A stretch of DNA of 64,000 nucleotides from a virus. The notes below the pieces were generated by a model. It searched no databases. It worked only from the letters and a program-made list of their open reading frames with translations, and was not told where the DNA came from. Positions 33,658 to 49,468 of the stretch are shown here, piece by piece. Position numbers and translations under genes: made by a program. The stretch is taken from IMG/VR virus record IMGVR_UViG_3300032323_000739, positions 1 to 64,000 of that record; one strand, written 5' to 3'. Numbering within the stretch: the first letter of the stretch is position 1; each line of letters begins with the position of its first letter.

Positions 33658-34250
33658 CTCAAGAAGAATTAGATGCTATACTAGCACAGTCGGCATGGAA
33701 ACCAGCAGACCCGCTAGTGTATTTTAATCCGGATACCGGAGAACTTCGTATGATTACTGGAGAGCAACAGGGCGATGATCCGTATTTTATACGTGTTAAT
33801 CCTGCTGAGATTGACGATCTTGTAAAAAACAAAACATCCCCTGCAGACTATCGTGTAGTTATGGATTTTAAAACTAATGAATATATTCTACAAAATATTT
33901 TAGATGGAGACATTCGTAGTTTTAATTGGAATGAAGAAGTATATCAACTACCTAAACACGGAGAGGGTAGTATTACATTAGTTCAAAATATTAAAGATAA
34001 AACTTGGACTCTTAAAATAACAGACAACGTTAGAGACTCGCTGTCTAAACAGGCAGTACACGCTAAAAGCAGTCTTGCTTTTTACGCTACTAAGCGGGAT
34101 GATGTTAACGTGTTATATGGGATATTAAAGTTTAGGATGATAGATATTACTACTACAGGTGAATTTACTATAAAAGATAGTTCTGCAGAACAGGAATGCA
34201 GTGTATTTTGCCGTAGAGTATTTGATAGTTATAGGCATGTAGAACAATGA
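33639..34250 (+). CDS. Hypothetical protein
   Basis: 203-aa ORF overlapping both neighbours; RBS GGAG. Confidence 0.55.
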   Translation: MPGNELTQEELDAILAQSAWKPADPLVYFNPDTGELRMITGEQQGDDPYFIRVNPAEIDDLVKNKTSPADYRVVMDFKTNEYILQNILDGDIRSFNWNEEVYQLPKHGEGSITLVQNIKDKTWTLKITDNVRDSLSKQAVHAKSSLAFYATKRDDVNVLYGILKFRMIDITTTGEFTIKDSSAEQECSVFCRRVFDSYRHVEQ

Positions 34251-35143
34251 AAATAAGAATAGCAGAACAAGATATCATTTATCTCAGTTACGATGAACCC
34301 AATGCTGAGAAGAATTATGCAGATTTATTACACAAAGTACCTTGGGCTAAACGTGTACATGGAGTTAAAGGCAGCGATGCCGCACACAAAGCCTGTGCCG
34401 CATTAAGCGACACAGAATATTTTGTCACAGTTGACGGTGACAATGTTATTGATTCTGAATTTATTAACGTAGAAATCGATTTAGATGAATTAGGGCTTGA
34501 TGAAAGTTATGTATTCAGTTGGTGCGGTAAAGTTAACGTTAACGGATTAATGTATGGCAACGGCGGCCTTAAGTTATGGACTCGTAAATTTGTTAACAAC
34601 ATGCGTACACATGAAAATTCTGACCCTGCTGATACTAAAGGTCTAGTAGAATTTTGTTTTGATGACAAATATTATCAATTCAATACTAATTATTCTACTA
34701 GCGTTATTAATGGCAGTGCTTTCCAAGCCTTCCGTGCAGGATTTCGAGAAGGCGTAAAGATGAGTTTAAATCAAGGAGCCAAAGTTAGTAACATTAAAGA
34801 CGTGTGGTGGCAAAATTATCAACGTCTTTTAATCTGGTCTACGGTTGGCAGTGATGTGGAATATGGAGATTGGGCTATATATGGTGCTCGAGAAGGTTGC
34901 TACTTGACTAATTGTACAGACTGGGACTATGCCAATGTTCGTGATTTTGAATACCTTACAGAACAGTGGAAAGAAAAATACAGTAAAATTACTGAGGAAA
35001 TGTTACCATATGAAATTACAGGACTTGGTGTAACACTAAAAGAAGAATTAGGTTTAGAAATAGCAGACCTAGATAAACATGGCAGTAAATTTTTTAGAAC
35101 AGTATATCAAAATACTCCAAGAATAATTGGAAGAAAACTATGA
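34247..35143 (+). CDS. GT-A glycosyltransferase-like protein (DGD motif)
   Basis: DII.LSYDEPNA...GVKG...AH..A......F.TVDGDN; paralog of 45718-46413. Confidence 0.65.
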   Translation: MKIRIAEQDIIYLSYDEPNAEKNYADLLHKVPWAKRVHGVKGSDAAHKACAALSDTEYFVTVDGDNVIDSEFINVEIDLDELGLDESYVFSWCGKVNVNGLMYGNGGLKLWTRKFVNNMRTHENSDPADTKGLVEFCFDDKYYQFNTNYSTSVINGSAFQAFRAGFREGVKMSLNQGAKVSNIKDVWWQNYQRLLIWSTVGSDVEYGDWAIYGAREGCYLTNCTDWDYANVRDFEYLTEQWKEKYSKITEEMLPYEITGLGVTLKEELGLEIADLDKHGSKFFRTVYQNTPRIIGRKL

Positions 35144-36555
35144 TCACTAGCAAGTTAGAATATTGGCCTAAGATTAAAGATCAACTAGATCAAGTAGGAC
35201 CTGGATTTTGTTTGGCAAAATGGAATCAAGTAACAATTCATCTAGCCACAGGTCATACACATAGTTGTCATCATCCTAACACACATAAGATTCCTCTGCA
35301 AGAAATTGCCGCGGACCCTAGTGCATTACATAATACTCTATTCAAGAAACAACAACGCCAACGTATGTTAGACGGTGAACGTCCAGAAGAATGTAGTTAT
35401 TGCTGGAATGTTGAGGATAATGTTAAAGAAGCACATATATTCAGTGACCGTGTACAAAAAAGTGCAGAATCTTGGAGTCAGAATTTTGAAGAAGTGCTGG
35501 CTGCTGGCGCAGAAAATTTTAATCCTACCTATGTTGAAGTTAGTTTTAGTAATGTTTGCAATTTTAAATGTTCGTATTGTTCACCAGAAGTATCTAGCAA
35601 ATGGATGGAGGAGATAGAACAATATGGGGCTTATCCAACTAGCAACAAATTTAATAATATCGAATGGTTAAAAAGCATTGACAAAATGCCTATACCTAAC
35701 AAAGACTATAATCCTTATGTTAATGCGTTTTGGCACTGGTGGCCCGAGTTATATAAGACTCTAAAAGTGTTCCGTATTACTGGCGGCGAACCTTTATTAA
35801 GCAAAGATACGTTTAAAGTTTTAGATCATATCATAGAAAACCCTCGTCCTGAACTTGAACTAATGATTAACAGTAATCTCTGCATACCGGATGAATTGTT
35901 TAATAAGTTTGTAGAAAAGATGAAACGTATTCAAGGCGAAGGCATGATCAAAGACTTTACCTTGTTTACTAGTTGCGAAGCACACGGCGAGCGAGCAGAA
36001 TATATTCGCAACGGTTTAAATTATAACAAATGGTTAGATAATTGTTATACGTACTTGGACAAAGTACCAAATGGTCGTTTAGGTATAATGAGCACCTATA
36101 ATATTTTAAGTGTTACAAGTTACATGCCATTTATGAAAGACTTGTTAACACTAAACAAAACCTTTAATCATTATAAGGATAGAGTACATCCATTAATTTT
36201 TGATATTCCATACTTACGTTATCCAGAACATCTTAGTATGACTATCCTTACACCTGATTATCTTAAACAAGTCGAAGAACAAGTAACGTTTATGTATCAG
36301 AACCGTCAAACAGCAGATTGGCAACCTCTTGCTGGCAACGGTTTTTATGATTGGGAATGTAAAAAGTTAGAACGTGTTTATCATTTGCTAGAAAGCACTT
36401 TCAAAGTTGGCGAGCATCTACAACCAAGCACTGTAAATAAACGCAAAGATTTTGTACGTTTTGTTGACGAGCATGACCGTCGTCGTGGTACAAATTTCTT
36501 ACAAACCTTTCCAGAAATGGAAGAGTTCTACAACCTATGCAAGTCTTTAACATGA
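35140..36555 (+). CDS. Radical SAM protein with N-terminal twitch/SPASM-like Cys cluster
   Basis: CNFKCSYC (CxxxCxxC), TGGEP; N-terminal CLAKW...HSCHH...ECSYCW. Confidence 0.85.
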   Translation: MITSKLEYWPKIKDQLDQVGPGFCLAKWNQVTIHLATGHTHSCHHPNTHKIPLQEIAADPSALHNTLFKKQQRQRMLDGERPEECSYCWNVEDNVKEAHIFSDRVQKSAESWSQNFEEVLAAGAENFNPTYVEVSFSNVCNFKCSYCSPEVSSKWMEEIEQYGAYPTSNKFNNIEWLKSIDKMPIPNKDYNPYVNAFWHWWPELYKTLKVFRITGGEPLLSKDTFKVLDHIIENPRPELELMINSNLCIPDELFNKFVEKMKRIQGEGMIKDFTLFTSCEAHGERAEYIRNGLNYNKWLDNCYTYLDKVPNGRLGIMSTYNILSVTSYMPFMKDLLTLNKTFNHYKDRVHPLIFDIPYLRYPEHLSMTILTPDYLKQVEEQVTFMYQNRQTADWQPLAGNGFYDWECKKLERVYHLLESTFKVGEHLQPSTVNKRKDFVRFVDEHDRRRGTNFLQTFPEMEEFYNLCKSLT

Positions 36556-36983
36556 AATATATTAGTCATAGAGGAAATTTAAAAGGTCCTGAACCTGAAT
36601 TAGAAAATGAGCCAGGGTACATTCAGGACGCTTTAGATGCTGGATTTGATGTAGAAGTTGATGTTTGGTATGTAGATGAAAAATTTATGCTAGGGCATGA
36701 CGCACCTATATATGATGTAACCAAAAACTTTTTATTAGATAGTAGACTTTGGTGTCATGCTAAAACTCCCGAAGCATTAACAGCCATGTTAACAGCCGGA
36801 ATTCATTGCTTTTGGCATGAAAATGATGAAAGAACTTTAACTAGTCAGGGATTTATATGGACATATCCACACAAAAAATTAGTTGATCGTTCAGTAGTTG
36901 TAATTTTAGACAAGGAATTAAATCATGAGTATGTCTCACGAGCAGTTGCAGTCTGCGGTGACTACGTTCAATCCTGGCGCTAA
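36552..36983 (+). CDS. Small glycerophosphodiester phosphodiesterase (GDPD/PLC)-like protein
   Basis: ISHRGN...EN.....A...GFDVEVDVW...LGHD...WCHAK. Start at ATG 36552 (ATGA overlap). Confidence 0.7.
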   Translation: MKYISHRGNLKGPEPELENEPGYIQDALDAGFDVEVDVWYVDEKFMLGHDAPIYDVTKNFLLDSRLWCHAKTPEALTAMLTAGIHCFWHENDERTLTSQGFIWTYPHKKLVDRSVVVILDKELNHEYVSRAVAVCGDYVQSWR

Positions 36984-37734
36984 TAAAATTGCTATCTGTT
37001 TTAGTGGACAAATTCGCACATGGCGTCGATGCATAGACACATGGATTCATCTTTTAGAACATAATGGTTCTAGAGATAACATAGATGTTTTTTGTCATTT
37101 TTGGGATTTTAATACGGTACCAAACTCTGTGCCAGATCATCCTAAAGTATCTGCCAAGGTGGATACTGAAGAAATAAAAGAACTAATAGACATTTTAAAA
37201 CCTAAAAAATATATAATTGATTTTGCGCGAGAGTTCCCACTGTTTGATAAAAATCAAGCAATTACACACGGACCGTTTGTTAGTCAATTTTACGGAATCA
37301 TGAAAGCGGCAAATTTAAAACGTCAGTATGAGATTGAAAATCGCATGATGTATAAAGGTGTAGTACGTGCAAGGTATGACGCATACTATACTCACAATGT
37401 AACTGAGTTTTATAAAAATATTGCTCCTAATACTATGCACGGGTTTCATATGGGATGGAATCCTGATAACTTTAGAGGGCGTATGGGAGATATTTTTTGG
37501 ATTGCAGACAGTGACACTTATGATCTTATAGCAGACTACTATATCAATCTAGGCTACATGAATAAGAAATGGTTCACTGCTGATCAAACAGATGCCACTC
37601 CGGAATGGGTATTTTTTCATTACATTAAAAAGAATAATATCGATATACAAAATAATCATTGGGATATTAAACTAATGAGAGAAAACGCAGAACTTAGTTT
37701 TGCCAAGAAGGAGGGCGGCTTTGAAGTCTGGTAA
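36925..37734 (+). CDS. Putative glycosyltransferase-like protein (IAIC.SG..R family)
   Basis: KIAICFSGQIRT...DVFCHFW...SQFY....AN.K..YE...Y..VVR.R.D; RBS AAGGA; paralog of the next gene. Confidence 0.5.
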   Translation: MSMSHEQLQSAVTTFNPGANKIAICFSGQIRTWRRCIDTWIHLLEHNGSRDNIDVFCHFWDFNTVPNSVPDHPKVSAKVDTEEIKELIDILKPKKYIIDFAREFPLFDKNQAITHGPFVSQFYGIMKAANLKRQYEIENRMMYKGVVRARYDAYYTHNVTEFYKNIAPNTMHGFHMGWNPDNFRGRMGDIFWIADSDTYDLIADYYINLGYMNKKWFTADQTDATPEWVFFHYIKKNNIDIQNNHWDIKLMRENAELSFAKKEGGFEVW

Positions 37735-38455
37735 GATTGCTATCTGTATTAGCGGAATGCTACGAACAGGAATTCAAGCGTATCCTGTGTTTCGTAATTT
37801 TTTTGATTCTCTTGGCGAGTATGATATTTTTTATCATACCTGGAAGTTAGACTCATCAATATCTAATTTGTTAAAAACAACTTACAAACCTACAAGATTT
37901 TTAGAAGAAGATCCGCTTAATAATACTAAAGAAAGTTCGTTTGGTAGTATGTTATACAGTATAATGATGGCCAATGAACTTAAAAAACAATATGAGATTG
38001 AAAATAATTTCAGATATGATCTTGTAATTAAAACAAGGTTTGATCTTGTTTTTCCTAAGACTATTAAATTTCCTGTTGATGAAAATATATGGCCTAGAAC
38101 AATTTATAGTGTAAACGGAAATTGTGGTATAAATCATACTGATTATGAAAATCACGGTATTAGTGATGTAATATTTTGGGGAGATAGCCAAAGTATGGAC
38201 CTGGCAACTAATATTTACAGGCATTATAAGTACACTACCTTAGTTAAAGACATGTATTTGAGGGACGGCTGGAAAATGGATGTAAAAGATTACTATCTAA
38301 GTCCAGGTACTATGATTTATCAACGCACAGTTAAACAAAATATAGCACATGTTAGATTGCCGTCTATTGGAGAAGTTCCGTGGAGGGACGATGTTGCTGA
38401 GTTAGATCCAGTTAAAGATTACGATAAAATAAGAGAGAGATATGCAAAAGGTTAA
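37721..38455 (+). CDS. Putative glycosyltransferase-like protein, paralog of 36925-37734
   Basis: KIAICISGMLRT...DIFYHTW...SMLYS...ANELK..YE....YDLVIKTRFD. Likely TTG start at 37721 after GAAGGAGG. Confidence 0.5.
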   Translation: MKSGKIAICISGMLRTGIQAYPVFRNFFDSLGEYDIFYHTWKLDSSISNLLKTTYKPTRFLEEDPLNNTKESSFGSMLYSIMMANELKKQYEIENNFRYDLVIKTRFDLVFPKTIKFPVDENIWPRTIYSVNGNCGINHTDYENHGISDVIFWGDSQSMDLATNIYRHYKYTTLVKDMYLRDGWKMDVKDYYLSPGTMIYQRTVKQNIAHVRLPSIGEVPWRDDVAELDPVKDYDKIRERYAKG

Positions 38456-39260
38456 GACATTATTAGTAGATGGCGATAGTTGGACATACGGCAGTGAAAT
38501 ACGCGATCCCAAGTTGCCAGAAGAAGTAAAAGATTGGGACCCACCGAATGATGAATATCGATTACCGCGTATTTGGCCAACAAAGTTGGGAGAAATGTTA
38601 GGTGCTGACGAAGTGTTTAACATCAGTTATCCTGCATCTAGCAATGATGGAATAGTGCGAAGAACAGTAGGATGGATTACTCAAGAATATCTAAGCAAAG
38701 GTCGCGATACTAGCGATCTATTTGTAGTCATAGGATTTACTAGTCCAGAACGAAAAGATTTTTATTATCGTGACATTGACGACAAATATAAACACTTTTG
38801 GTACACACTTTGGCCAATGTGGAAACATCGTTATCCACAAGAGGAATTAAACAGATTTGCCGACATTTATGCTTCTTATATGTGGAACCCTGAAGAGTAT
38901 ACACATAGATATCTAAATCAAGTATTCTATTTGCAAACATTGTTTAATCATTACGGCATAAAACATTTATTTTTCCAAGCCTTTTATCAGCGTAATGATA
39001 TGCATATACGTCAGTGGACAGATGATCCATATAACAAACACTACAACGGACAACCAGATCAAATGGTTTGGGACATGATTGATCCTACACGATTTATGCA
39101 TAAGGATGACAAGATTCATAGTTTTCATAACTATATTTTAGATAAAGATACCAGCGAAGGAAAACGAAATAGTATTCTTAACATGCATCCTAGTGAATTA
39201 GGACATACATGGTGGGCCGAACACATTTATGAATACGGCAAAGGAAAAAAATTATGGTAA
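38442..39260 (+). CDS. SGNH/GDSL-fold esterase or acyltransferase-like protein
   Basis: DGDSWTYG block I, SN..I.R, G.T..ER, C-terminal HP...GH..WA. Confidence 0.65.
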   Translation: MQKVKTLLVDGDSWTYGSEIRDPKLPEEVKDWDPPNDEYRLPRIWPTKLGEMLGADEVFNISYPASSNDGIVRRTVGWITQEYLSKGRDTSDLFVVIGFTSPERKDFYYRDIDDKYKHFWYTLWPMWKHRYPQEELNRFADIYASYMWNPEEYTHRYLNQVFYLQTLFNHYGIKHLFFQAFYQRNDMHIRQWTDDPYNKHYNGQPDQMVWDMIDPTRFMHKDDKIHSFHNYILDKDTSEGKRNSILNMHPSELGHTWWAEHIYEYGKGKKLW

Positions 39261-40027
39261 AAGAAATTGTAGTTTGCGGGGATAGTTTTGGCTGCGGTTC
39301 GGGCATCCCCTTAGAATCTTGTTTTGAAGCATCTTTTGGTGGACAAGTCGCAGATCATTTTAATGTTCCTTTGAATGTGTATGCTAGATCGGGGTGTTGT
39401 AATTATGTGATATATCTGCAAGTTAAACAAGTAATTGAGGATTATCGTGCTAAAGAAAAACCATTTGTGTTAATATCAACAACTAATCACAGTCGATTTA
39501 CATTTCCTGTTGATACAACTTTAGGATATGTTAACTATACATTGGCTGATGTTGACTACGATAGTTATACTCCTTATTCTGAACATACAGGCCCAGGTCG
39601 TAGACCCAAGCCTATAGAAAATTTTAATAAACCTAAATTAATTAGTGAAACTGTTAGTAACATTTTATATTTTTTAGAACAAAATCCTGGAAATTTAGCA
39701 CCGTTGTTTTACAGTATTAAAAGAAAAATAAAAACTGTTGAGCTTTATTTTAGAGATTTGTACGATGACGAAATTAAACAAGTTAATGATACTGGTTTAA
39801 TATTATTAATGCACAACGAATTAAAAGAGGCCGGAATTCCGCATTTAATAATGACACCTAGTGAACACAGAGATCGTTTTATAGATAAAGAAAATTTCTT
39901 TTATAATAATTGGGGATACTATAGTCAAAAATATCCAGACTTGTACGGTAGCGGACATTGCACTGAAGTCGGTCACATGGAAGTAGCCAAAAAAATAATT
40001 AAACGAATAGAAGGAACGAGTTTGTGA
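39254..40027 (+). CDS. SGNH/GDSL-fold protein
   Basis: CGDSFG.G, ARSG.CN, C-terminal GH...GH..VA. Confidence 0.6.
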   Translation: MVKEIVVCGDSFGCGSGIPLESCFEASFGGQVADHFNVPLNVYARSGCCNYVIYLQVKQVIEDYRAKEKPFVLISTTNHSRFTFPVDTTLGYVNYTLADVDYDSYTPYSEHTGPGRRPKPIENFNKPKLISETVSNILYFLEQNPGNLAPLFYSIKRKIKTVELYFRDLYDDEIKQVNDTGLILLMHNELKEAGIPHLIMTPSEHRDRFIDKENFFYNNWGYYSQKYPDLYGSGHCTEVGHMEVAKKIIKRIEGTSL

Positions 40028-40710
40028 AATTAGTGTATGCTAACGGTGATAGTTGGACGCATGGTGACGAATTATCTGCGTTCGATGACATAGATCAAAC
40101 TTCTGTTCGATATTATAATTCTTGGCCGTGGAAATTATCTCAAATTTTAGACATTCCGGTATGTGTTAATGATGCACAAGGTGGCACAGGTAATTTACGT
40201 ATTTTTCGTAGAACTAACGAATTTATATATAGATGGATTGGTTCAGGAAAATCTGTCAGTGATTTATTAGTAGTAGTAGGATGGTCTACGCCCGAGCGTA
40301 CAGAAATTGGTGAAGGAAAAGGAATATATCCAATACAGATTCAGGGTCCTTTGTATTTTACAGATTTACCACGTGATGATGTTTCTTTAGAAAACTATCA
40401 TAAAGCATATTACGAAATATATTCAGACAGTTACGGAGAAAACTTAACAGCACTATATATGATGAATTTAAGAATGTTGTGCCAGGGATTAGGAATAAAA
40501 TATTTTGATTTTGTTGCTATAGGTAATCAACCTCAGCATTGGCAAGACTATATGAAATCAAAGTGGAATATAGAATTAACAAATATGTATATGAAAAGTA
40601 CCTGGAGTGCTGAAGTTTATAATAATAAATGGAGTAAACATAAGCACGGACATCCTACTAAAGAAACTCATGAACTATGGGCTAACATTTTAGCCAAGGA
40701 AATACAATGA
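40024..40710 (+). CDS. SGNH/GDSL-fold protein
   Basis: NGDSWTHG, GGTGN.RI.R, GWS..ER, HP....H..WA; GTG start. Confidence 0.65.
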   Translation: MKLVYANGDSWTHGDELSAFDDIDQTSVRYYNSWPWKLSQILDIPVCVNDAQGGTGNLRIFRRTNEFIYRWIGSGKSVSDLLVVVGWSTPERTEIGEGKGIYPIQIQGPLYFTDLPRDDVSLENYHKAYYEIYSDSYGENLTALYMMNLRMLCQGLGIKYFDFVAIGNQPQHWQDYMKSKWNIELTNMYMKSTWSAEVYNNKWSKHKHGHPTKETHELWANILAKEIQ

Positions 40711-41429
40711 ACATAATAATTGGACTATGCGGCCAAGGAAACCGATTTAAACAAGTAGGTTACGAATTGCCTAAATATCTTATTACGTATCATGGAGCAC
40801 CAATGATTTATCATAGTGTAGAAACTATAGGTATTAGAGGTAGAATACATTTTGTAGTAAGGAAAGAACATTTAGAACAATTTAATTTTTTAGAAAAAAT
40901 GTTGTTAGGGTTAGGAGACGAAATCATAACCATAAATGGTAACACACAAGGTGCCGCAGAAAGTTTATTATATACTAAGCCTTATATCAAAGATTTAAAT
41001 GCTCCTATGCTTAGTGTAAATGGTGACCAATTTATGGATTGGAAATCTTATCAATTTCAAGATGAAATACAACGGAATCCTGAAACAAGTTATATTGTAA
41101 CTTACAACGAAACTAGCCCTAAATGCAGTTATGTTCGAGAGGATCAAGATCGTGTTGTTGAAGTAAGAGAGAAACAAGTTATTAGTAACGACGCAACTAC
41201 GGGGTATTATCATTGGGCTCACACACATGATTTTTTTCAAGATGCTGAACAAATGATTAAAGAAGGACACAAAGAAAACGGAGAGTTTTATGTTGCTCCA
41301 GTTTATAATTATACTATTGCTAGAGGAAAAACAGTAAAAAAGTTTTCTATAAGTAATAAAGAGTTTTATCCAGTAGGCACTCCCGACGATTTAACAAAAT
41401 TTCAAAGACTAAGCACAAGGTTTGATTAA
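40707..41429 (+). CDS. Sugar-phosphate nucleotidyltransferase (NTP_transferase family)
   Basis: IIIGLCGQGNRF...GY.LPK.LI; T.GAA; NGDQ; V.EK..IS..AT.G.Y; GEFYVAPVYN; GTP.DL. Confidence 0.85.
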   Translation: MNIIIGLCGQGNRFKQVGYELPKYLITYHGAPMIYHSVETIGIRGRIHFVVRKEHLEQFNFLEKMLLGLGDEIITINGNTQGAAESLLYTKPYIKDLNAPMLSVNGDQFMDWKSYQFQDEIQRNPETSYIVTYNETSPKCSYVREDQDRVVEVREKQVISNDATTGYYHWAHTHDFFQDAEQMIKEGHKENGEFYVAPVYNYTIARGKTVKKFSISNKEFYPVGTPDDLTKFQRLSTRFD

Positions 41430-41764
41430 TGAAAAAAGCACACATTGATAACTTTATTAAAGGATGGTTCGTTGGAAATTTTGAACCTAGCCTACTTAAA
41501 GAAAATTTTGAAGTTGGTTTCCATCAGCACAAAGCAGGCGATTTTCATCAAGATCATTTTCATAAACACAGTACTGAAATTAACTTAGTAGTAGAGGGCA
41601 AAGTCAAAATAAACGGAGAAGTATTTAGGGCAGGTGACATCTTTGTTTTGGAGCCTTACGAAATTAGCCAATGCGAATATCTTACAGATGTTAAATTAGT
41701 TGTAGTACGGAATCTAAGCGACCCTAATGATAAGTTTGAAGTCCAAATAGTTGACAAAAAATAA
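41429..41764 (+). CDS. Cupin-domain protein (possible sugar epimerase/isomerase)
   Basis: GWFVGNF.P; H.H....E...V..G...ING.....GDI....P cupin motifs. Confidence 0.75.
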   Translation: MKKAHIDNFIKGWFVGNFEPSLLKENFEVGFHQHKAGDFHQDHFHKHSTEINLVVEGKVKINGEVFRAGDIFVLEPYEISQCEYLTDVKLVVVRNLSDPNDKFEVQIVDKK

Positions 41765-41779
41765 AAAATACTTTACAAT
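41751..41779 (+). promoter_or_regulatory. sigma70-type promoter TTGACA-N17-TACAAT for RLP-kinase-cyclase-SDR
   Basis: TTGACA at 41751-41756 (inside the cupin 3' end), TACAAT at 41774-41779, RBS AAAGGA at 41785-41790, ATG at 41796. Confidence 0.75.
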
Positions 41780-41795
41780 AACAGAAAGGAAAAGT

Positions 41796-43028
41796 ATGAA
41801 ATTTTTTCGAGAACTAACTCAAACAGAAAAAGATCGTTGTGTTATTGCAACATATTATATTGAAACGTATTCTGACATAGGAGATTTACGCGATGCCGCT
41901 TGGAATCTTGCTATAGGTCAAAGTGTTGGAAATCCAAAAATACGAAATCAGTGGGAAACTGATGAATTGTTTGAAAGGTCATCCTGTGTGATTTATCACA
42001 ATGAATCAGAATTAACAGGCAAGCATAGTGGCACAATTAAGATTGGATTTCCTAAAATAAACTCCGATTGGCAAGGGGATGGCATCAGTCATCTTATGTG
42101 TCAATTAATGGGCGGCCAGATGGATATTAATGTGTTTAAAGCCTGCAGATTAAAACACATTGAGTTTCCTAAAGATGTCGAACAGCAATTTTTAGGACCT
42201 CGACAAGGTATTACGGGTATTAGAAAATTTGTTAATCGCTATGACAAACCTCTGTCAGGAGCCATTGTAAAACCTAAAACTGGCATTAGTCCTGCTACTC
42301 TAGCAGACATGGTTAAAGAATTAATAGACGGCGGTGTAGATTTTATCAAGGAAGACGAGATATTGTCTAACCCTAGTTTTTGTCGTTTAGAGGATCGTGT
42401 TGAATTAATTTCTAACATTGTTAATAATTGCGGTCGTGGAGTTATCTATTGCTTCTGTATTAATGGCGATCATCATACTATTCTTGACCGTGCTAAGTTT
42501 GTAGCCAACAATGGCGGTAACGGTATTCACATTAATTTCTGGAGCGGTCTAGGAGTTTATAATTCAATACGCAGATTAGATTTTCCATTGTTTATTCATT
42601 ACCAGAAGAGTGGTGATAAGATTCTTACAGACAAACGCAACCCGTTTGGTATTGATTGGTCAGTACTGTGTGACCTTGCTGGACTATGCGGTGTAGATAC
42701 TATTCATGCGGGCATGTGGGGAGGCTATTTAAGTGACAACGAAGATGAACTTAAATACACCATGGAAACTCTGCATAAACGAAATGTTCTTCCTGCACTA
42801 AGTTGTGGCATGCATCCTGGGATTGTTAATCCAACAGCAGAAAAATTTGGTACTGATTTTCTTGCTAACTGCGGCGGCGCTATACACGGGCACCCAGACG
42901 GTACTCTAGCCGGAGCATTAGCCATGCGTCAGGCCATTGACAAAACTCCTGGAAAAGAGTTTTTGACAGCAATAGAAAAATGGGGCTATGTAGGCGGTTC
43001 CTTACCCGAGTGGGTATTAGATTTTTAA
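41796..43028 (+). CDS. RuBisCO-like protein (form IV RLP), probably non-carboxylating
   Basis: GP..GI.G.R...PL.GAIVKPKTG, GGVDFIKEDE (carbamylated Lys and metal motif), DTIHAG, SCGMHPG, GGAIHGHPDG..AGA.AMRQA. The true start is 41796; the TTG at 41751 in the ORF track is the -35 box. Confidence 0.92.
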   Translation: MKFFRELTQTEKDRCVIATYYIETYSDIGDLRDAAWNLAIGQSVGNPKIRNQWETDELFERSSCVIYHNESELTGKHSGTIKIGFPKINSDWQGDGISHLMCQLMGGQMDINVFKACRLKHIEFPKDVEQQFLGPRQGITGIRKFVNRYDKPLSGAIVKPKTGISPATLADMVKELIDGGVDFIKEDEILSNPSFCRLEDRVELISNIVNNCGRGVIYCFCINGDHHTILDRAKFVANNGGNGIHINFWSGLGVYNSIRRLDFPLFIHYQKSGDKILTDKRNPFGIDWSVLCDLAGLCGVDTIHAGMWGGYLSDNEDELKYTMETLHKRNVLPALSCGMHPGIVNPTAEKFGTDFLANCGGAIHGHPDGTLAGALAMRQAIDKTPGKEFLTAIEKWGYVGGSLPEWVLDF

Positions 43029-43029
43029 T

Positions 43030-43989
43030 ATGGATATAATTGAACTAAAAGGCGGTAGTTTAAATTCAACTTGTTTATATGTTGACGGTGATCGCAAATT
43101 TGTAAGAAAAACTATTTCGACTACTGCCGATAGAGAATACGGCTATGTACGTTGGTACAGTCAATTAAAAAAATTACAAAGATTTAATCAGATAATTCCC
43201 CAGCACGTTCCTCGAGTTCTGGATGCTGGTGTGTGTGATAAAGGTGCATATTTTGACATTGAATATATTGATGCTAAAGATATTAAAACACTGTTTAAAG
43301 AAAATTTACTAGATGCCCACCAGACTGAAAAAATGCATCAACAGTTGTGGCAAGCGTTTGATACTTTACATCAACACACTTATCAACCAAACATTAGTAG
43401 TTTAAAACTTTATTTTCAGGAAGAAGTTTTACAAAAAATTAATGATGCTAGACAGTTTTCAGAGTTTGAAAACTTTTATCAAATGGATGTCTATGTACAT
43501 TGGGGAGAAACATTTAGTGGTATTAAACATAAATTAGAACAATTATCTAAGTTGTTTGATCAAGTTATAACTACAGAAAGTTACGTACACGGAAATCCAA
43601 CGCTAGAAAATATTCTTTACAGCGAAGAAACAGGTATAGTGTTTATTGACTTATATGAAGAAGGTATTGTAGACAGCAAGTTTATGGACTATAGTCAGAT
43701 ACTACAATGTAGTAGCAGTTACTACGGTATTCTTAATGACAGTGTGATACGTGTAAAAGGAAACGTTACAGGATTCGACACTAAGTTTCCAAAAAATTTA
43801 TTGTACTTCGATAAACTGTTTAATGAAGAATTAGAGCGTAGATTTACAAATCAGGAATATTTGTTGATAAGATTATTTGAAGCCACACAGTTTTTTCGTA
43901 TGTTGCCGTTTAAATGTCACGCTGGAAACATAGAAGCGGCAAAGTTTTTTTATGCTCATGCTTGCGCTCTCGTAAATAAACTATTATGA
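43030..43989 (+). CDS. Aminoglycoside-phosphotransferase/choline-kinase-like kinase
   Basis: LKGGS glycine loop, VRK, P.V, IEYI, Brenner-like HGNPTLENIL, FIDL. Confidence 0.7.
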   Translation: MDIIELKGGSLNSTCLYVDGDRKFVRKTISTTADREYGYVRWYSQLKKLQRFNQIIPQHVPRVLDAGVCDKGAYFDIEYIDAKDIKTLFKENLLDAHQTEKMHQQLWQAFDTLHQHTYQPNISSLKLYFQEEVLQKINDARQFSEFENFYQMDVYVHWGETFSGIKHKLEQLSKLFDQVITTESYVHGNPTLENILYSEETGIVFIDLYEEGIVDSKFMDYSQILQCSSSYYGILNDSVIRVKGNVTGFDTKFPKNLLYFDKLFNEELERRFTNQEYLLIRLFEATQFFRMLPFKCHAGNIEAAKFFYAHACALVNKLL

Positions 43990-45047
43990 CATGGCGTGTA
44001 AAGACTACCCTTCCTGTAGAGTTTGATATAGTCAAAGTACCTAATGCATTGGATTGGGACATAATTCCCGGTCAGCGTAGAATAGCCGTGGTTGATGAAA
44101 CAGTCTATGCTTTGTACAAAGACAAAATTCCCGCTGGCACAGAGATTTTTACAGTACGCAGTACAGAATCTGAAAAAGATTGGAAAAACGCCGAACGTGT
44201 TTTACAGTTTTTTCAAGATATAAAATTACTACGGAGAGAAACGGTTATTGCTGTAGGCGGTGGAGTTCTTTTAGACTTAGTAGGATTTTGTTGCAGTATA
44301 TATCGTAGAGGTGTTCCTTATGTTAGAATACCAACTACACTATTGGCTATTGTTGATGCTAGTGTAGGTGCAAAAACAAGCATTAATCATTTTGGGTTTA
44401 GAAATAGAATTGGTAGTTTTTATCCACCGACATTGACATTAATTGATAAGTCTTTTATTAAAACACAAGATCACAGAGAAATATCAAACGGCATGGCAGA
44501 AATTTTAAAGTTAGCCATAGTTCTTGATTATCAATTATTTGAATTAATTGAACTTAATCCGCAGGAATTACTAAGACTTAAATTTCAAAATTATGTGTTA
44601 GCAGATAAAATAATTGATCGTGCAATTTCGGGTATGACTGAAGAACTGAATGATAATCTTTGGGAACGAGACTTACAGCGTCCTGTAGATTTTGGACATA
44701 CATTTAGTCCTATGGTTGAAATGAAAAATGTTCCTAATTTGTTACATGGTGAAGCAGTAATGTTAGATTGTCTTTTAAGTGCTTGTATTAGTAATTTAAG
44801 AGGATATATCAGCAACGATCATTTACACCGTATTTTTAAAACTGTTCGCAGTTGTGACTTGCCTACAGAACACAAAGATTTTTATAATGTTGACCTGCTG
44901 TGGGCAGGTTTACAAGATGTAATGAACCATCGCAATGGTAATCAATATATACCTGTTCCTATAAGTATTGGCCGTTGCGAAATTATCAATGACGTAACAC
45001 GCAGTGAAATAGAACAGGCCTGCGACCGAATGAGAAGTATGCAATGA
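43986..45047 (+). CDS. Sedoheptulose 7-phosphate cyclase, 2-epi-5-epi-valiolone synthase (EEVS)-type (DHQS superfamily)
   Basis: GGGVLLDLVGF..SIYRRG.PY..IPTTL...DAS.G.K; metal ligands in AEILK, FGHTF and LHGEAV; EEVS-type MTEEL..NLWE...R.VDFGH. Confidence 0.82.
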   Translation: MTWRVKTTLPVEFDIVKVPNALDWDIIPGQRRIAVVDETVYALYKDKIPAGTEIFTVRSTESEKDWKNAERVLQFFQDIKLLRRETVIAVGGGVLLDLVGFCCSIYRRGVPYVRIPTTLLAIVDASVGAKTSINHFGFRNRIGSFYPPTLTLIDKSFIKTQDHREISNGMAEILKLAIVLDYQLFELIELNPQELLRLKFQNYVLADKIIDRAISGMTEELNDNLWERDLQRPVDFGHTFSPMVEMKNVPNLLHGEAVMLDCLLSACISNLRGYISNDHLHRIFKTVRSCDLPTEHKDFYNVDLLWAGLQDVMNHRNGNQYIPVPISIGRCEIINDVTRSEIEQACDRMRSMQ

Positions 45048-45718
45048 AAACAGTATTAATTACAGGTTCTAGTCGAGGGCTAGGTAAAGCACTGACAGAA
45101 ACATTTTTACAAAATGGATGGAAAGTTGTTGGAGTTAGTAGAACAGATTTAAAGAGTTATGACAACTATACACACATAGTTGCTGATGTGGCTAATATTG
45201 GCCAAGTCCATACTGCATTTGATCTACTTAAAAAAACTAAAACTAAAATTGATGTGTTAATAAACAATACGGCTGCTTTTCATATGGGCGACTTTGCAGA
45301 TTCAAAATATTTTGATATTGCGAATGTTATTGATACTAATGTAAAAGGCACAATGTATGTGACTAATCAAGCGTTAACAATAATGGAGCCAGGTTCAAAA
45401 GTTGTTTTTGTTAACAGTGTAGCAGGACTAAGAGAAATTCAACATCAGAGCATTTACTGTGCCAGCAAGGCTGCTTTAAAAAGTTTTGCCGGAGTGTTAG
45501 GCCAAGAACTTAGACAGAGGGGTATAAAAGTATCTAGTATACATCCAGGCGGCATTAACACAACCTTATGGAATGAAAATAATCCATATCCTTGCGGTGA
45601 TGTTACTAACGCTTTAGATCCACACCATCTTTCAGAAATGATCTATCGCATCTCGTCTGATACTAGTAATACTGAATACAAAACTATAACAATGTTTCCT
45701 GAAGTGGAGTGGCACTAA
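45044..45718 (+). CDS. Classical short-chain dehydrogenase/reductase
   Basis: TGSSRGLG, DVLINN, NSVAG, YCASK, HPGG..T. Confidence 0.9.
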   Translation: MKTVLITGSSRGLGKALTETFLQNGWKVVGVSRTDLKSYDNYTHIVADVANIGQVHTAFDLLKKTKTKIDVLINNTAAFHMGDFADSKYFDIANVIDTNVKGTMYVTNQALTIMEPGSKVVFVNSVAGLREIQHQSIYCASKAALKSFAGVLGQELRQRGIKVSSIHPGGINTTLWNENNPYPCGDVTNALDPHHLSEMIYRISSDTSNTEYKTITMFPEVEWH

Positions 45719-46413
45719 TGTACGACATAGTGTTTATCAGTTACGGTGAGCCTAATGCAGAAGCCAATTGGGAACGATTAAAAAATAGATATCCCTTGGC
45801 TAAACGTGTTACCAATGTGGCAGGAATTCATCAAGCACATATTGCCGCGGCTAAAAAAGCCTTTACTAAAATGGTTTGGGTAGTGGATGGCGATGCAGAG
45901 GTATTACCTACATTTAATTTTGACTACGAAGTTAGCGAATGGGATTTAGATGTAGTACATGTATGGCGCAGTCGTAATCCTATAAATGATTTAGAATACG
46001 GGTACGGCGGAGTAAAACTATTGCCACGTAAGTTAACGCTGGATATGGATATTTCTAAACCAGACATGACTACCAGTATTAGTACAAAATTTAAAGCAAT
46101 GGCTGAAGTTAGTAATATTACTGCTTTTAACACTGATCCGTTTAATACTTGGAAGAGTGCGTTTCGCGAGTGCGTTAAGTTAGCCAGTAAAGTTATAGAT
46201 GGACAAGTTGACACTGAAACTGAGCATAGGTTATTAGAGTGGTGTACCCCACACGTAGATAGATTGCACGGTAACTGGGCGTTTCTTGGCGCAGAGGATG
46301 GCAAAATGTACGGCATGCAAAAGGCCGGAGATTTAAAAGCACTAGGTAAAATAAATGATTTTGAATGGCTACGACAATTCTTTTCAAGATATCCCGTTCC
46401 ACCAAATAGTTAA
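45718..46413 (+). CDS. GT-A glycosyltransferase-like protein, paralog of 34247-35143
   Basis: DIVFISY.EPNA...GIH.AH..AA....WVVDGDA; TAATG coupling to the SDR. Confidence 0.65.
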   Translation: MYDIVFISYGEPNAEANWERLKNRYPLAKRVTNVAGIHQAHIAAAKKAFTKMVWVVDGDAEVLPTFNFDYEVSEWDLDVVHVWRSRNPINDLEYGYGGVKLLPRKLTLDMDISKPDMTTSISTKFKAMAEVSNITAFNTDPFNTWKSAFRECVKLASKVIDGQVDTETEHRLLEWCTPHVDRLHGNWAFLGAEDGKMYGMQKAGDLKALGKINDFEWLRQFFSRYPVPPNS

Positions 46414-47353
46414 ATTTGGTCAACGCACTATGCTTGAACGACCTTTGTTCAACGTAAGTTGGATACTAGGTCGTTTTTGTAATTATAATTGTAGTTACTG
46501 CTGGCCCTATGCTAGAAGTGATAAATTGGATCATCTAGATTATGAAACTTATACAAACACCGTTGACGAAATAAAACGTCAGGCACGTGAACAAGGCTTC
46601 ACTGATTTTCATTGGAGTTTTAGTGGCGGCGAACCTACAGCATATAAACGATTATTAGATTTAGTTAAACATTTAGACGATGGAGTAAAATCTCCTTATC
46701 AAAGTATCCACATGACTACTAATCTTAGTCCAGGAAGTAAGTGGTGGGGCACCTGGTGTAAAAATACTGAGATGCTACAACGCAGAAGTTTAACAGCCAG
46801 TTTCCATACAGAATTTGCACGTGAACAAGAATTTGGAGACAAATGTCTACAATTAAATTACGAAGGTGTTCATGTAACAGTAAATCAGGTAATGGTTCCA
46901 GAATTGTTCTGGGACACCTATGCACGATGCGAACGTCTATACAAACGAGGTATAAATGTAACACTAAAACCTCAAAGCGATCCTACGGCTAGTTTTGTAG
47001 TCAGTGGTTACGATGACAAAATGTTAGAGGTTATGCAAACAGGATTTCCGCAATTATCGAGTGGCGAGCAGTTGTATCAGGTAGCATTATTTGACGAGTT
47101 AGGGCACGAATATTTGTTTGATCAAGCCGAAAGATTTAACGCATTTGGTTTTAACAAATTTCAAAATTGGACTTGCAATGCTGGCTATCAAAGTGTTATA
47201 ATAAGAAGCAACGAAGTTAAACGTAGTTATAGTTGTCACGATGAATCATTAGGAACTTTGATAAGCGGATTTAAATTATTTGACAGTCCTAAAAAATGTA
47301 TAACTCCAACTTGTGTTAGTTCGGCAGATAGTAAAATACCAAAAATAAAATGA
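46355..47353 (+). CDS. Radical SAM protein
   Basis: CNYNCSYC, SGGEPT; C-terminal CNAG...SC...C....C Cys cluster. Confidence 0.85.
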   Translation: MILNGYDNSFQDIPFHQIVKFGQRTMLERPLFNVSWILGRFCNYNCSYCWPYARSDKLDHLDYETYTNTVDEIKRQAREQGFTDFHWSFSGGEPTAYKRLLDLVKHLDDGVKSPYQSIHMTTNLSPGSKWWGTWCKNTEMLQRRSLTASFHTEFAREQEFGDKCLQLNYEGVHVTVNQVMVPELFWDTYARCERLYKRGINVTLKPQSDPTASFVVSGYDDKMLEVMQTGFPQLSSGEQLYQVALFDELGHEYLFDQAERFNAFGFNKFQNWTCNAGYQSVIIRSNEVKRSYSCHDESLGTLISGFKLFDSPKKCITPTCVSSADSKIPKIK

Positions 47354-48021: not shown

Positions 48022-48602
48022 ATACAGAACATTTACACCACTGGATGAGAGCAATTCGATCTAGCAAAGATCCTATACGTACCATGGATGCTTTTTGGAG
48101 AGGCCAAATTCTTAGTAAAGAATGGTTAATAGACAATATTAAACCGTTTGTCAATCAAGAAGTGTCTATAGACATACATGGCGGGTGGGTAGGAGTGTTA
48201 TCTAGTATGTTGTTTCAATCTGGCTTATCTATTAAACATATTCGTAGTATCGACATAGATCCAGACTGCAAGGATATAGCATCTAATATGAATCAGATAG
48301 AACTAGAACAAGGAAGATTTAGAGCTGTCACAGCAGATATGTGTACTATTCGCAGTGATGCAGATATTATAATTAATACTAGTTGTGAACACATTACACA
48401 AGATCAATACGACACTTGGTCAATAGGACATCCTAACAACAGTCTATTGGTATTACAGAGCAACAACTACAGCATTCCTGAACACGTTAGGCCTGCTCAA
48501 GATTTAGAAGAATTTAAATCTCAATGTGATGTAAATGTATTATGGGCAGGAGAATTAGAACTACCCCTGTACAAGCGATTTATGATTATAGGAACTAGAT
48601 GA
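48012..48602 (+). CDS. Class I SAM-dependent methyltransferase-like protein
   Basis: IHGGWVG motif I, SIDIDP, ADM, IINTSCEH. Confidence 0.65.
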   Translation: MQIDTEHLHHWMRAIRSSKDPIRTMDAFWRGQILSKEWLIDNIKPFVNQEVSIDIHGGWVGVLSSMLFQSGLSIKHIRSIDIDPDCKDIASNMNQIELEQGRFRAVTADMCTIRSDADIIINTSCEHITQDQYDTWSIGHPNNSLLVLQSNNYSIPEHVRPAQDLEEFKSQCDVNVLWAGELELPLYKRFMIIGTR

Positions 48603-49468
48603 TGAACAAACATTTTATTGAAATAGCACAATTTTACATGACTAATGTTTGTAATCTTACCTGTAATAATTGCTGTACTTTCAATAATAGAAGATTTTCG
48701 GGACACTATAAATTTAACGATTATCGAGATCATTATATTGAGTGGTCAAAAAAAGTTGATTTAGATTTTATGAGTATCCTAGGTGGAGAACCGTATGCTA
48801 ATCCAGATTTACCAAATTGGATAGATGGTCTCAGATCCTGCTGGCCAGATAACAAAAATTTTAGTATTTGTACAAACGGATCTTATCTCTCTACCTTCAA
48901 AGAATTGTCAAGAGATGCAATAAAAAAGGGATTATGGTTAGAAATAAATGTTCACGATCCTAATCAATATGATGATATTAAAAACAATTTGTTAGAAATT
49001 ATCAGTGTCTTTAATTATGAAGAAAAAGTTATACCTGATAAATTTCATGTAGATCATCTTGAATACTATGCTGACGGTATAAAAATAGCTCAAATAGTCA
49101 AATATTATAATTTTTTTAATTCAGCAACTACAGAGATTAAAAATAGAGTAACGTATTTTCATAATAGTAATCCAGAAATTGCTCACAGTGCTTGTTCAGC
49201 ATTTGATTGTCATTATTTTGTAAGAGGCGAACTTTATAAATGTTTTTTAACAGCAGTGGGAAGAGATTTAAATCAGCAATTTTTGATAGAGGATCGTGCT
49301 AAAACTCTTCTAGAAAACTATCAGGCCTGCTCACCGTGGTCTTCGGACGAACAAATTAAACAATTTATGAACAATATTAAAACCCCAATATCTCAATGTA
49401 GTCTTTGTCCAGAAAAATTAAATTTACAGCCTATATGGCCTTTAGAAAAGACCAAAATTAAATTGTAG
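48599..49468 (+). CDS. Radical SAM protein
   Basis: CNLTCNNC, LGGEP, TNG; C-terminal C...C....G.LYKC and C..CP. Confidence 0.85.
   Translation: MMNKHFIEIAQFYMTNVCNLTCNNCCTFNNRRFSGHYKFNDYRDHYIEWSKKVDLDFMSILGGEPYANPDLPNWIDGLRSCWPDNKNFSICTNGSYLSTFKELSRDAIKKGLWLEINVHDPNQYDDIKNNLLEIISVFNYEEKVIPDKFHVDHLEYYADGIKIAQIVKYYNFFNSATTEIKNRVTYFHNSNPEIAHSACSAFDCHYFVRGELYKCFLTAVGRDLNQQFLIEDRAKTLLENYQACSPWSSDEQIKQFMNNIKTPISQCSLCPEKLNLQPIWPLEKTKIKL

Follow-up and report, generated by a model that had tools for sequence, protein, structure and literature searches.

A phage operon as a possible fusion of an EEVS-type cyclitol cassette with a RuBisCO-like protein cassette

Among the C7 cyclitols (carbasugars), antibiotics, glycosidase inhibitors and sunscreens are known, and we know of no case in which they serve as virus-activated, sugar-like building blocks. 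A route to an activated C7 cyclitol is established in actinomycetes, in the guanosine diphosphate (GDP)-valienol branch of acarbose and validamycin biosynthesis, which employs a synthase of 2-epi-5-epi-valiolone (EEVS; AcbC/ValA), cyclitol kinases, the reductase AcbN and a nucleotidyltransferase (NT; AcbR/ValB). Here we describe six consecutive genes at positions 40707 to 45718 of a 64,000-nucleotide stretch of DNA from a large freshwater phage (IMG/VR record IMGVR_UViG_3300032323_000739; the whole stretch is called the window below). They encode an NT, a cupin, a RuBisCO-like protein (RLP), a kinase-like protein, an EEVS-type cyclase and a short-chain dehydrogenase/reductase (SDR). With a little more confidence than doubt, we read these six genes as two separate biosynthetic cassettes that now follow one another in a glycan-tailoring island of the phage.

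The acarbose/validamycin branch is the closest known chemistry: like the proposed phage pathway, it opens with an EEVS acting on sedoheptulose 7-phosphate, after which the ring is reduced by an SDR, phosphorylated again by a kinase and activated by an NT to give a nucleoside diphosphate (NDP)-carbasugar. Counted by family and not by orthology, an EEVS, a kinase, a reductase and an NT were encoded together in 69 to 74 of 77 viral cyclase loci. The phage version differs from the actinomycete one in its host and in its surroundings, lying in a glycan island and not in an antibiotic cluster. The phage kinase has an aminoglycoside phosphotransferase (APH) fold with an HGN loop and is not of the ROK/glucokinase type, and the phage NT is a 240-aa RmlA/GlmU-like enzyme. 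An AcbO/ValD-type epimerase, an AcbL-type dehydratase, a HAD phosphatase and a GT-B pseudo-glycosyltransferase were not recognised in the phage window, where the transferase candidates are GT-A-like (GT, glycosyltransferase). A second comparison is offered by salvage pairs of the NahK/GlmU or LicA/LicC type, in which, as in the phage cassette, an APH-fold kinase is followed by a small NTP_transferase-fold enzyme to give an NDP or cytidine diphosphate (CDP) derivative. In the phage the substrate would instead be a carbocyclic C7 polyol that the cyclase of the neighbouring gene makes de novo, and the phage kinase-like protein carries Asn in place of the catalytic Asp.

For the RLP, a divergent, non-carboxylating clade of the RuBisCO superfamily has been described from myovirus-like contigs of many environments and from Beckwithbacteria, with its function left open in the passages that treat it (PMC6389311). 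The window RLP fits the description of these 'form IV-like' RLPs by Jaffe, Castelle, Dupont and Banfield (2019), as given in those passages, and a Beckwithbacteria locus was also found here. The same passages describe neither an NT-cupin-RLP-glycerophosphodiester phosphodiesterase (GDPD) neighbourhood nor a link to a cyclitol cassette, both of which were seen in the present data. The function of this large phage and cellular clade has been open since 2019. The characterised enzymes MtnW (a DK-MTP-1-P enolase), the 5-methylthioribulose-1-phosphate (MTRu-1-P) isomerase of R. rubrum and OiaX (a decarboxylase of the apiose pathway) have the RuBisCO large-chain fold, the carbamyl-lysine/Mg triad K201/D203/E204 and K175 in common with the window RLP, and they act on ketose phosphates without carboxylation. 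However, the window RLP lies far below the MtnW and OiaX equivalog cut-offs, its nearest structures are form III RuBisCOs and not RLPs, and its setting is biosynthetic (NT and glycan genes), whereas the characterised RLPs serve salvage or catabolism.

In the reading that we favour, cassette 1 would consist of the kinase-like protein, the EEVS-type cyclase and the SDR together with an NT. From its family, the cyclase is expected to convert host sedoheptulose 7-phosphate into 2-epi-5-epi-valiolone; the SDR would then reduce the ring ketone, and the APH-fold enzyme would re-phosphorylate the product, most likely at the new pseudo-anomeric hydroxyl. The NT would turn the cyclitol phosphate into an NDP-cyclitol, which neighbouring GT-A-like proteins may transfer. 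A pseudo-anomeric 1-phosphate is favoured because the NTs are RmlA/GlmU/AglF/MurU-like and the matches of the kinase model include anomeric kinases. Cassette 2 would comprise an NT, the cupin, the RLP and a small GDPD-like protein (mini-GDPD), whose gene now lies 4 kb upstream, and would represent a widespread phage and cellular 'RLP sugar-activation' unit. Its substrate would be a phosphorylated keto-sugar and not a cyclitol, which the RLP may enolise or isomerise and the cupin may isomerise or epimerise, and the NT would then activate what results. The cyclitol cassette of the fused clade appears to have lost its own NT, and a diverged NT of the RLP lineage (NT'') heads the joint operon, where it probably acts in the cyclitol branch, possibly in both. 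If this is true, the phage diverts sedoheptulose 7-phosphate into an NDP-pseudo-sugar and from there into a glycosidase-resistant unit on phage or host glycans, which would be a new use of this chemistry. The preliminary description of this stretch knew of no phage pathway of such a kind, and the literature that we searched likewise contained no paper on a phage EEVS or sedoheptulose-7-phosphate cyclase.

Layout and distribution of the six genes

All six open reading frames lie on the + strand and belong to the families assigned to them in the preliminary description. They encode a sugar-1-phosphate-type NT (NT'', 40707..41429; PF00483 NTP_transferase, 32.5 bits), a putative metal-binding cupin of 111 aa (41429..41764; below the Pfam cut-off, with an HxHxxxxE motif), a non-carboxylating RLP (41796..43028; PF00016 RuBisCO_large, 149 bits), a kinase-like protein of the APH/fructosamine-kinase fold (43030..43989; PF03881 and PF01636), an EEVS-type sedoheptulose-7-phosphate cyclase (43986..45047; dehydroquinate synthase (DHQS) superfamily, 262 bits to ValA) and a classical SDR (45044..45718; PF00106, 136.6 bits). 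Most junctions are coupled as described before: ATGA overlaps occur at 40707, 43986 and 45044, the genes share one base at 41429, a single base separates them at 43029, and a TAATG lies at 45716-45720. The exception is the cupin/RLP junction. The most likely RLP start is the ATG at 41796 (homologue consensus start MKFFR, with a GAAAGGA Shine-Dalgarno sequence upstream; the open reading frame alternative is 41751), which leaves a 31-nt spacer after the cupin gene and no overlap.

An IMG/VR search yielded at least 241 viral relatives of the RLP, and the loci of the best 80 (54-97% identity) were compared with every open reading frame of the window. For cellular loci, one genome per prokaryotic species was scanned, which gave 47 RLP loci, and neighbourhoods were counted over 45 of them. 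A search with the cyclase alignment returned 118 viral relatives; the counts for cyclase loci come from 77 newly fetched loci. Presence and absence searches in whole records were checked with positive controls.

Among the best 80 viral RLP loci, an NT was encoded in 79, the cupin in 69 and the mini-GDPD in 64. The kinase, the cyclase and the SDR occurred in only 9 to 11 loci, all of them close relatives of the window, and 71 loci contained none of the three. In the cellular loci an NT was adjacent to the RLP in 41 of 45 cases, in several gene orders, while a cupin was found in 12 and a mini-GDPD in 19. The cellular hosts included a complete Pelagibacter chromosome, SAR11 single cells, four Legionella-family genomes, Azospirillum, Verrucomicrobia, Beckwithbacteria, Saccharibacteria and several DPANN archaea. 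No cyclase was found in the 47 cellular RLP loci fetched, and the best cyclase match in five cellular RLP genomes was at the level of aroB only (30-35% identity, 100-127 bits). Cyclases were also absent from four whole RLP-phage genomes estimated to be 90-100% complete, namely G001 (197 kb, 100% complete), G002 (177 kb, 90%), G004 (518 kb) and G005 (172 kb); the RLP of G001 is 89% identical to that of the window. No RLP was found in the cyclase phages G006 (85% complete) and G007 (82% complete).

The 77 viral cyclase loci contained a kinase in 74 and an SDR in 74 cases and an NT directly upstream in 69, with an RLP in only 15 and a cupin in only 14. Four architectures were distinguished. NT-cupin-RLP-mini-GDPD occurs in phages and cells (architecture A). 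The order NT'-kinase-EEVS-SDR, free of RLP and cupin, occurs in about 57 viral loci, usually with a GT-A-like gene and a methyltransferase gene upstream (B). The fused order NT''-cupin-RLP-kinase-EEVS-SDR is found in the window and in about 17 other contigs (C). Finally, only NT''-kinase-EEVS-SDR is present in locus L172, with a cell-wall hydrolase gene on one side and a DNA ligase gene on the other (D). A 106-aa gene upstream of the L172 NT was considered as a possible cupin gene and does not encode one.

The EEVS-type cyclase, the SDR, the APH-fold kinase-like protein and a sugar-1-phosphate-type NT, as identified by their sequences, form a conserved unit. This part of the earlier proposal of an NDP-activated C7 carbasugar has held: the cyclase is of the EEVS type and the NT-kinase-cyclase-SDR unit recurs in about 70 viral loci, so that the activated-carbasugar idea is plausible and supported by gene context. 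Its six-gene form, which included the RLP, has not. The neighbourhood comparison confined the six-gene order to about 18 contigs of one small clade, an outcome that the preliminary description had itself named as speaking against its proposal, and the RLP and the cupin, formerly counted among the cyclitol genes, belong to the wider NT-cupin-RLP-mini-GDPD unit that is present in EEVS-free phage genomes and in cells.

Properties of the encoded proteins

The cyclase showed the two-domain fold of the DHQS type (PF01761, 126 bits; PF24621, 81.5 bits). Its score was 262 bits to ValA (4P53), a proven EEVS, 220 to the desmethyl-4-deoxygadusol synthase (DDGS) of Anabaena (5TPR), at most 146 to DHQS and 79 to 2-deoxy-scyllo-inosose synthase (DOIS), and it reached 215 bits against the aroB equivalog TIGR01357, with a cut-off of 305 bits. 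Two active-site fingerprint sites separate EEVS from DDGS (PMC4426668). The phage cyclase carries Asp in VDFGHTFSP and His in NHRNG, where ValA also has Asp (VDFGHSFSP) and His (KHRDG) and DDGS has Ala and Thr; both residues were invariant across 15 homologues (55-100% identity). We take the fingerprint sites to be Asp281 and His360 of ValA. The position of Asp281 is presumably occupied by Asn in DHQS (N268, A. nidulans numbering), and the phage cyclase has Asp there by motif alignment. An ordinary DHQ synthase (AroB) was rejected on the missed aroB cut-off, the far higher ValA score and the Asp at the fingerprint position, and a mycosporine-type DDGS on the difference in both fingerprint residues and the lower score. 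As judged from these features, the earlier assignment of the cyclase as EEVS-type and not AroB stands. The SDR gene lies directly downstream of the cyclase gene in 72 to 74 of the 77 viral cyclase loci, and its product is a candidate ketoreductase for the C1 carbonyl of the cyclitol.

The structural model of the kinase-like protein (predicted local distance difference test (pLDDT) 92.6) gave Foldseek probabilities of 1.00 to methylthioribose (MTR) kinase, FN3K, NahK and APH(4), and also matched choline kinase. The model points to the bilobal small-molecule kinase fold of the APH/ELK type, nearest to anomeric and other small-molecule sugar kinases. The catalytic loop reads H187-G-N189-P-T-L-E-N194 (HGNPTLEN) in place of the HGDxxxxN of APH-fold enzymes, and the canonical HxDxxxxN pattern was not found. 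Asn189 did not vary among 20 homologues taken from both cassette types, in which the rest of the loop and D207, the Mg-binding residue, are kept without or nearly without exception. As the catalytic Asp is replaced by Asn, the protein is named kinase-like here. A profile search with the kinase family returned only close relatives that carry no Pfam label.

The best PDB match of NT'' was 4EVW (65 bits), and NCBIfam gave only sub-threshold RmlA/GlmU/AglF-like matches. By tblastn, it is the single NT of its family in the whole 89-kb record. All NTs of the loci resemble sugar-1-phosphate NTs (RmlA, GlmU, AglF, MurU) and not the IspD/TarI/LicC type. In a tree of 154 NT sequences, those of the fused clade formed one clade (Shimodaira-Hasegawa-like approximate likelihood ratio test (SH-aLRT) 84), which together with L172 was again one clade (SH-aLRT 99, stem 0.75). 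This group was placed among the RLP-associated NTs, far from the NT' sequences of the RLP-free cyclitol cassettes, which formed a clade on a very long branch. In some RLP cassettes (L079:2959-4329) the NT is a 456-aa fusion, whose N-terminal HAD domain is most like beta-phosphoglucomutase, the sugar phosphatase TM_1254 and CbbY; the NT open reading frames of L023, L071 and L072 are similar in length. Such a HAD-NT fusion fits a route that delivers a rearranged sugar phosphate as a 1-phosphate.

In the cupin family alignment H34, H43, H45 and E50 (HxHxxxxE) were invariant, and the family profile matched Cupin_2 proteins, a small 'mannose-6-phosphate isomerase' (7ZVM), KdgF and the cupin domain of Cap5F. 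The motif and these matches make the protein a candidate metal-binding sugar isomerase or epimerase. The cupin gene adjoins the RLP gene in 69 viral and 12 cellular loci. Identity to the window cupin was 65-91% for the cupins of the fused clade and 34-48% for other cupins.

The best PDB matches of the RLP were archaeal form III RuBisCOs (141-151 bits). The equivalents of K175, K177, K201, D203, E204, H327, S379, G381 and G403/404 are retained, while the substitutions E60Q, T65N, W66P, N123Q, H294Q and R295K were observed and K334 is replaced (in GMWGGYL). Because E60, T65, W66, N123, H294, R295 and K334 are replaced, the protein is predicted to be unable to carboxylate and, by its residues, is an RLP, form IV in the broad sense. 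A bona fide RuBisCO of forms I-III was rejected on the replaced catalytic residues and on a rubisco_III score of 206 bits against a cut-off of 497 bits. The RLP was also under every NCBIfam equivalog cut-off (mtnW, 123.5 against 513.6; PRK09549, 159.1 against 409; OiaX, 151.5 against 700). One signature is common to all homologues, including those of Legionella and Pelagibacter: GQSxGNP, KPK, KEDE, YQKSGD, IHxGMxGGY, SCG and G[GS]xxH, with KPK and KEDE invariant across the phage, Legionella and SAR11 proteins. The window RLP is 88-89% identical to RLPs of cyclase-free phages.

The partnership of an RLP with a cupin has a precedent in R. rubrum. An R. rubrum-type pair of RLP and methylsulfurylase cupin was unsupported here, as a search of PDB sequences with the cupin profile failed to pick up the R. 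rubrum protein. A trio resembling methionine salvage, with an MtnK-like kinase, the RLP as MtnW and the cupin as acireductone dioxygenase (ARD), was considered because the top match of the kinase model is MTR kinase. It was rejected, since the kinase gene keeps company with the cyclase gene rather than the RLP gene, and the scores of the RLP fall far short of the MtnW cut-offs. No paper linking an RLP with a cytidylyltransferase or a GDPD was found in the literature searched.

Two further observations concern cellular RLP loci. In four Legionella-family genomes a LicD-family phosphotransferase gene lies divergently beside the RLP-NT pair (L124:8627-9478, Legionella nautarum; L126, L127 and L130), which hints that the product of the RLP branch may be transferred as a phosphodiester. 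In DPANN loci (L102:4102-4857; L098, L103, L115, L117 and L119) a full-length GDPD (PF03009, 77 bits), encoded next to a second NT, takes the place of the 148-aa mini-GDPD of phages and bacteria.

History of the fused operon and competing readings

Within the fused clade and L172, NT, kinase, cyclase and SDR lose identity to their window counterparts in step, with, for example, 66/74/77/62% in L136, 53/60/63/52% in L147 and 50/56/56/46% in L172. The identity of the fused-clade RLPs is bimodal, at 85-86% or at 47-50%, and in the RLP tree they fall into two distant clades, one of which is nested among the RLPs of cyclase-free phages. By these comparisons, the RLP allele has been exchanged at least once inside the fused operon, and NT, kinase, cyclase and SDR have been inherited together. 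The simplest reading of these sequences would be that the function of the RLP is the same whether or not a cyclase is near, its allele being freely exchangeable, and that an RLP-type NT was taken over by the cyclitol genes in the fused clade. As a natural fusion, the operon displays which genes travel together and an RLP-type NT that replaces the NT of the cyclitol cassette. In one fused contig (L140:5865-7090, IMGVR_UViG_3300008113_005242) the RLP is frameshifted near residue 297, by decay of the gene or by an assembly error.

Several points weigh against our reading of the genes as two joined cassettes. The window genes scanned included no recognisable 2-epimerase, dehydratase or GT-B pseudo-glycosyltransferase of the acarbose/validamycin type, with the cupin as a possible epimerase, and no family was assigned to several of the neighbours. 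As a glycosyl donor, a saturated NDP-carbasugar is chemically poor. The Asn in its catalytic loop suggests that the kinase-like protein may be a poor or unusual phosphotransferase. If the sole NT serves only the cyclitol branch, the RLP loses a near-constant partner, in a record that covers about 24% of the genome. In the fused clade the cupin was inherited with the NT and the cyclitol genes and is unusually divergent, and it may have a role in the cyclitol branch. The NT and RLP trees were made by quick methods and contain long branches, and the proposed steps are drawn from sequence and gene context.

One alternative takes all six genes as a single NDP-cyclitol pathway, in which the RLP, the cupin or both would act as an enediol epimerase or isomerase on valiolone phosphate or on a heptulose phosphate before cyclisation, as the preliminary description had proposed for the RLP. 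The genes are indeed translationally packed in one operon with a single NT, and about 18 contigs preserve their order, even those with a different RLP allele. Compared with ordinary RLP cassettes, the fused clade has an unusually divergent NT and cupin, which a change of substrate would predict, and the acarbose route needs a 2-epimerisation next to a ketone, which is feasible for an enolising enzyme. We nevertheless hold this pathway to be quite unlikely. The RLP occurs without the cyclase in 71 of the best 80 viral loci, in four phages that are 90-100% complete and in cells that have aroB only, whereas about 57 cyclase cassettes lack the RLP and the cupin, as does L172, which has the NT lineage of the window. 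The 88-89% identity to RLPs of cyclase-free phages, with an unchanged active-site signature, also counts against it, as do the RLP swap within the fused clade and the frameshifted copy in one fused contig. From the sequences, an RLP step on valiolone phosphate or heptulose phosphate appears unlikely, which corrects the attractive but unsupported idea of the RLP as a cyclitol enzyme. A narrower version, that the cassettes have become one pathway in the fused clade only, seems to us improbable. Here NT'', perhaps together with the cupin, would handle both a cyclitol phosphate and an RLP-derived sugar phosphate, or the RLP and the cupin would act on a keto-cyclitol. If this were true, a hybrid or epimerised carbasugar donor would be made that neither cassette makes alone, and the RLP product would be close enough to a C7 cyclitol 1-phosphate for NT exchange.

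The other alternatives concern the fate of the cyclitol. By the logic of CDP-ribitol, CDP-glucitol and CDP-choline, a non-anomeric phosphate could be activated and a phosphodiester-linked cyclitol phosphate transferred by a phosphotransferase or a GDPD-like protein. The succession of kinase and NT is that of LicA/LicC, the kinase fold matches choline kinase too, and attack at phosphorus would sidestep the hard displacement of an NDP from a saturated carbocycle. A GDPD-like protein is encoded in the neighbouring cassette, LicD lies beside the RLP-NT pair in the four Legionella-family loci, and genes for 280-aa and 237-aa proteins without known family flank the RLP-free cassette. The NTs, however, match RmlA, GlmU, AglF and MurU best, with marginal or no matches to IspD-type cytidylyltransferases, the conserved upstream neighbour is GT-A-glycosyltransferase-like, and the window genes scanned included no LicD, TagF or CDP-alcohol phosphotransferase, which makes this route an unlikely one in our estimate. 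In still another reading, the output of kinase, cyclase and SDR would be soluble, either the cyclitol itself or its phosphate, and might for example be a signal, an inhibitor of glycosidases or a sunscreen-like compound, with the window NT serving the RLP branch only. It would agree with the RLP-type lineage of the window NT, with the lack of a transferase gene near the cassette of L172 and with the characterised EEVS products, which are soluble secondary metabolites (PMC4426668, PMC12904256). We consider it very unlikely, because an NT adjoins the cyclase in 69 of the 77 viral loci, including the RLP-free L172, the cassettes lie in glycan islands beside GT-like and sugar methyltransferase genes, and no methyltransferase-oxidoreductase, ATP-grasp enzyme or aminotransferase of the gadusol, mycosporine-like amino acid or validamycin type was found within the cassette.

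For the two-cassette reading, the window adds the NT phylogeny, the minimal cassette of L172, the RLP allele exchange and the HGN catalytic loop. The ordinary RLP cassette, the RLP-free cyclitol cassette and the fused form constitute matched enzyme sets that are usable for a comparison of substrate specificities.

Source record and neighbouring genes

The record is an 89-kb IMG/VR viral contig with a CheckV completeness of about 24%, and the window is its first 64 kb. Its phage origin was confirmed by baseplate hub, baseplate wedge and tail-fibre or tail-fibre-like genes across 2.4-30.6 kb, and the baseplate wedge protein is 35-39% identical to its counterparts in jumbo myophages (Atu_ph07, Phosso, SCTP-2). 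Between the baseplate wedge gene and the tail-fibre-like genes, a single open reading frame of 4472 aa spans 10753-24171. The six-gene operon sits inside an unbroken + strand run of small genes at about 30.6-52 kb. Near-identical DNA was found in an independent freshwater study. The near-identical contigs are short and of low depth, and the RLP/kinase junction was spanned only by one of them (X3), from the same study as the probable source; the sequencing runs listed included none of RNA. The six-gene order is not an assembly artefact, because about 17 further viral contigs, from many samples, have it as well and near-identical DNA exists elsewhere. Among the isolate phage genomes of INPHARED, no match to the window DNA and none to the RLP was found, and the cyclase matches were bacterial aroB genes only, in mislabelled or contaminated records.

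The 148-aa mini-GDPD-like protein, which completes the RLP cassette as its fourth member, is encoded about 4 kb upstream on the + strand (36537..36983). Its HRG, EN, ExD and GHD motifs were invariant in 25 homologues, and the family profile matched GDPDs in the PDB (E=1.5e-4). It falls short of a full (beta/alpha)8 GDPD domain: the window copy has no Pfam match, and 4 of the 25 homologues match, with a best E of 0.033. The mini-GDPD gene adjoins the RLP or the NT gene in 61 to 64 viral and 19 cellular loci. Next to it on the + strand lie two paralogous genes for proteins of about 250-270 aa (36925-37734 and 37700-38455) with weak DUF7796 matches. The structural model of this family had a pLDDT of 62.5, with confidence in the N-terminal half only, and its Foldseek matches were GT6, B3GalT5 and glycogenin (E of about 1e-4), so that both are probably GT-A-fold glycosyltransferases. 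The family was found in 40 RLP loci and in 55 to 62 cyclase loci, and it lies directly upstream of the NT in the RLP-free cyclitol cassettes. Elsewhere in the surroundings of RLP and cyclitol genes, GT-A-like proteins, GT2, GT11, WavE and sugar O-methyltransferases are encoded.

A gene was indeed found directly downstream of the SDR, starting with the ATG at 45718 (45718..46413, + strand), where the preliminary description had placed a glycosyltransferase-like gene. The description as glycosyltransferase-like was borne out in part: the 231-aa product has a DxD-like VVDGD motif only, matches no Pfam or NCBIfam family and is a possible glycosyltransferase. It occurs in the fused clade only, with a conserved motif IVFISYGEPNAE...VVDGD, and shows no homology to the 237-aa protein whose gene comes after the SDR gene in RLP-free cassettes. 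Together with 34247-35143 it forms a pair of paralogues (34% identity) with a common IVFISYxEPNAE...VDGD motif, possibly an undescribed transferase family. The RLP-free cassette is flanked by the conserved 280-aa and 237-aa genes, and in many cases it is followed by a gene for a protein of about 840 aa (L173:12706-15240 and homologues). This protein has a Zeta-toxin/AAA_33 kinase domain and, at its N-terminus, a weak cytidylyltransferase-like match (E=0.018, below the Pfam cut-off).

Two DUF6071 paralogues, at 38442-39260 and at 40024-40710 just upstream of the NT gene, were found in the fused clade only. Radical-SAM genes are present in the + strand island at 35140-36555, 46355-47353 and 48599-49468, and the one at 46355-47353 is co-inherited with the fused cassette in 14 loci.

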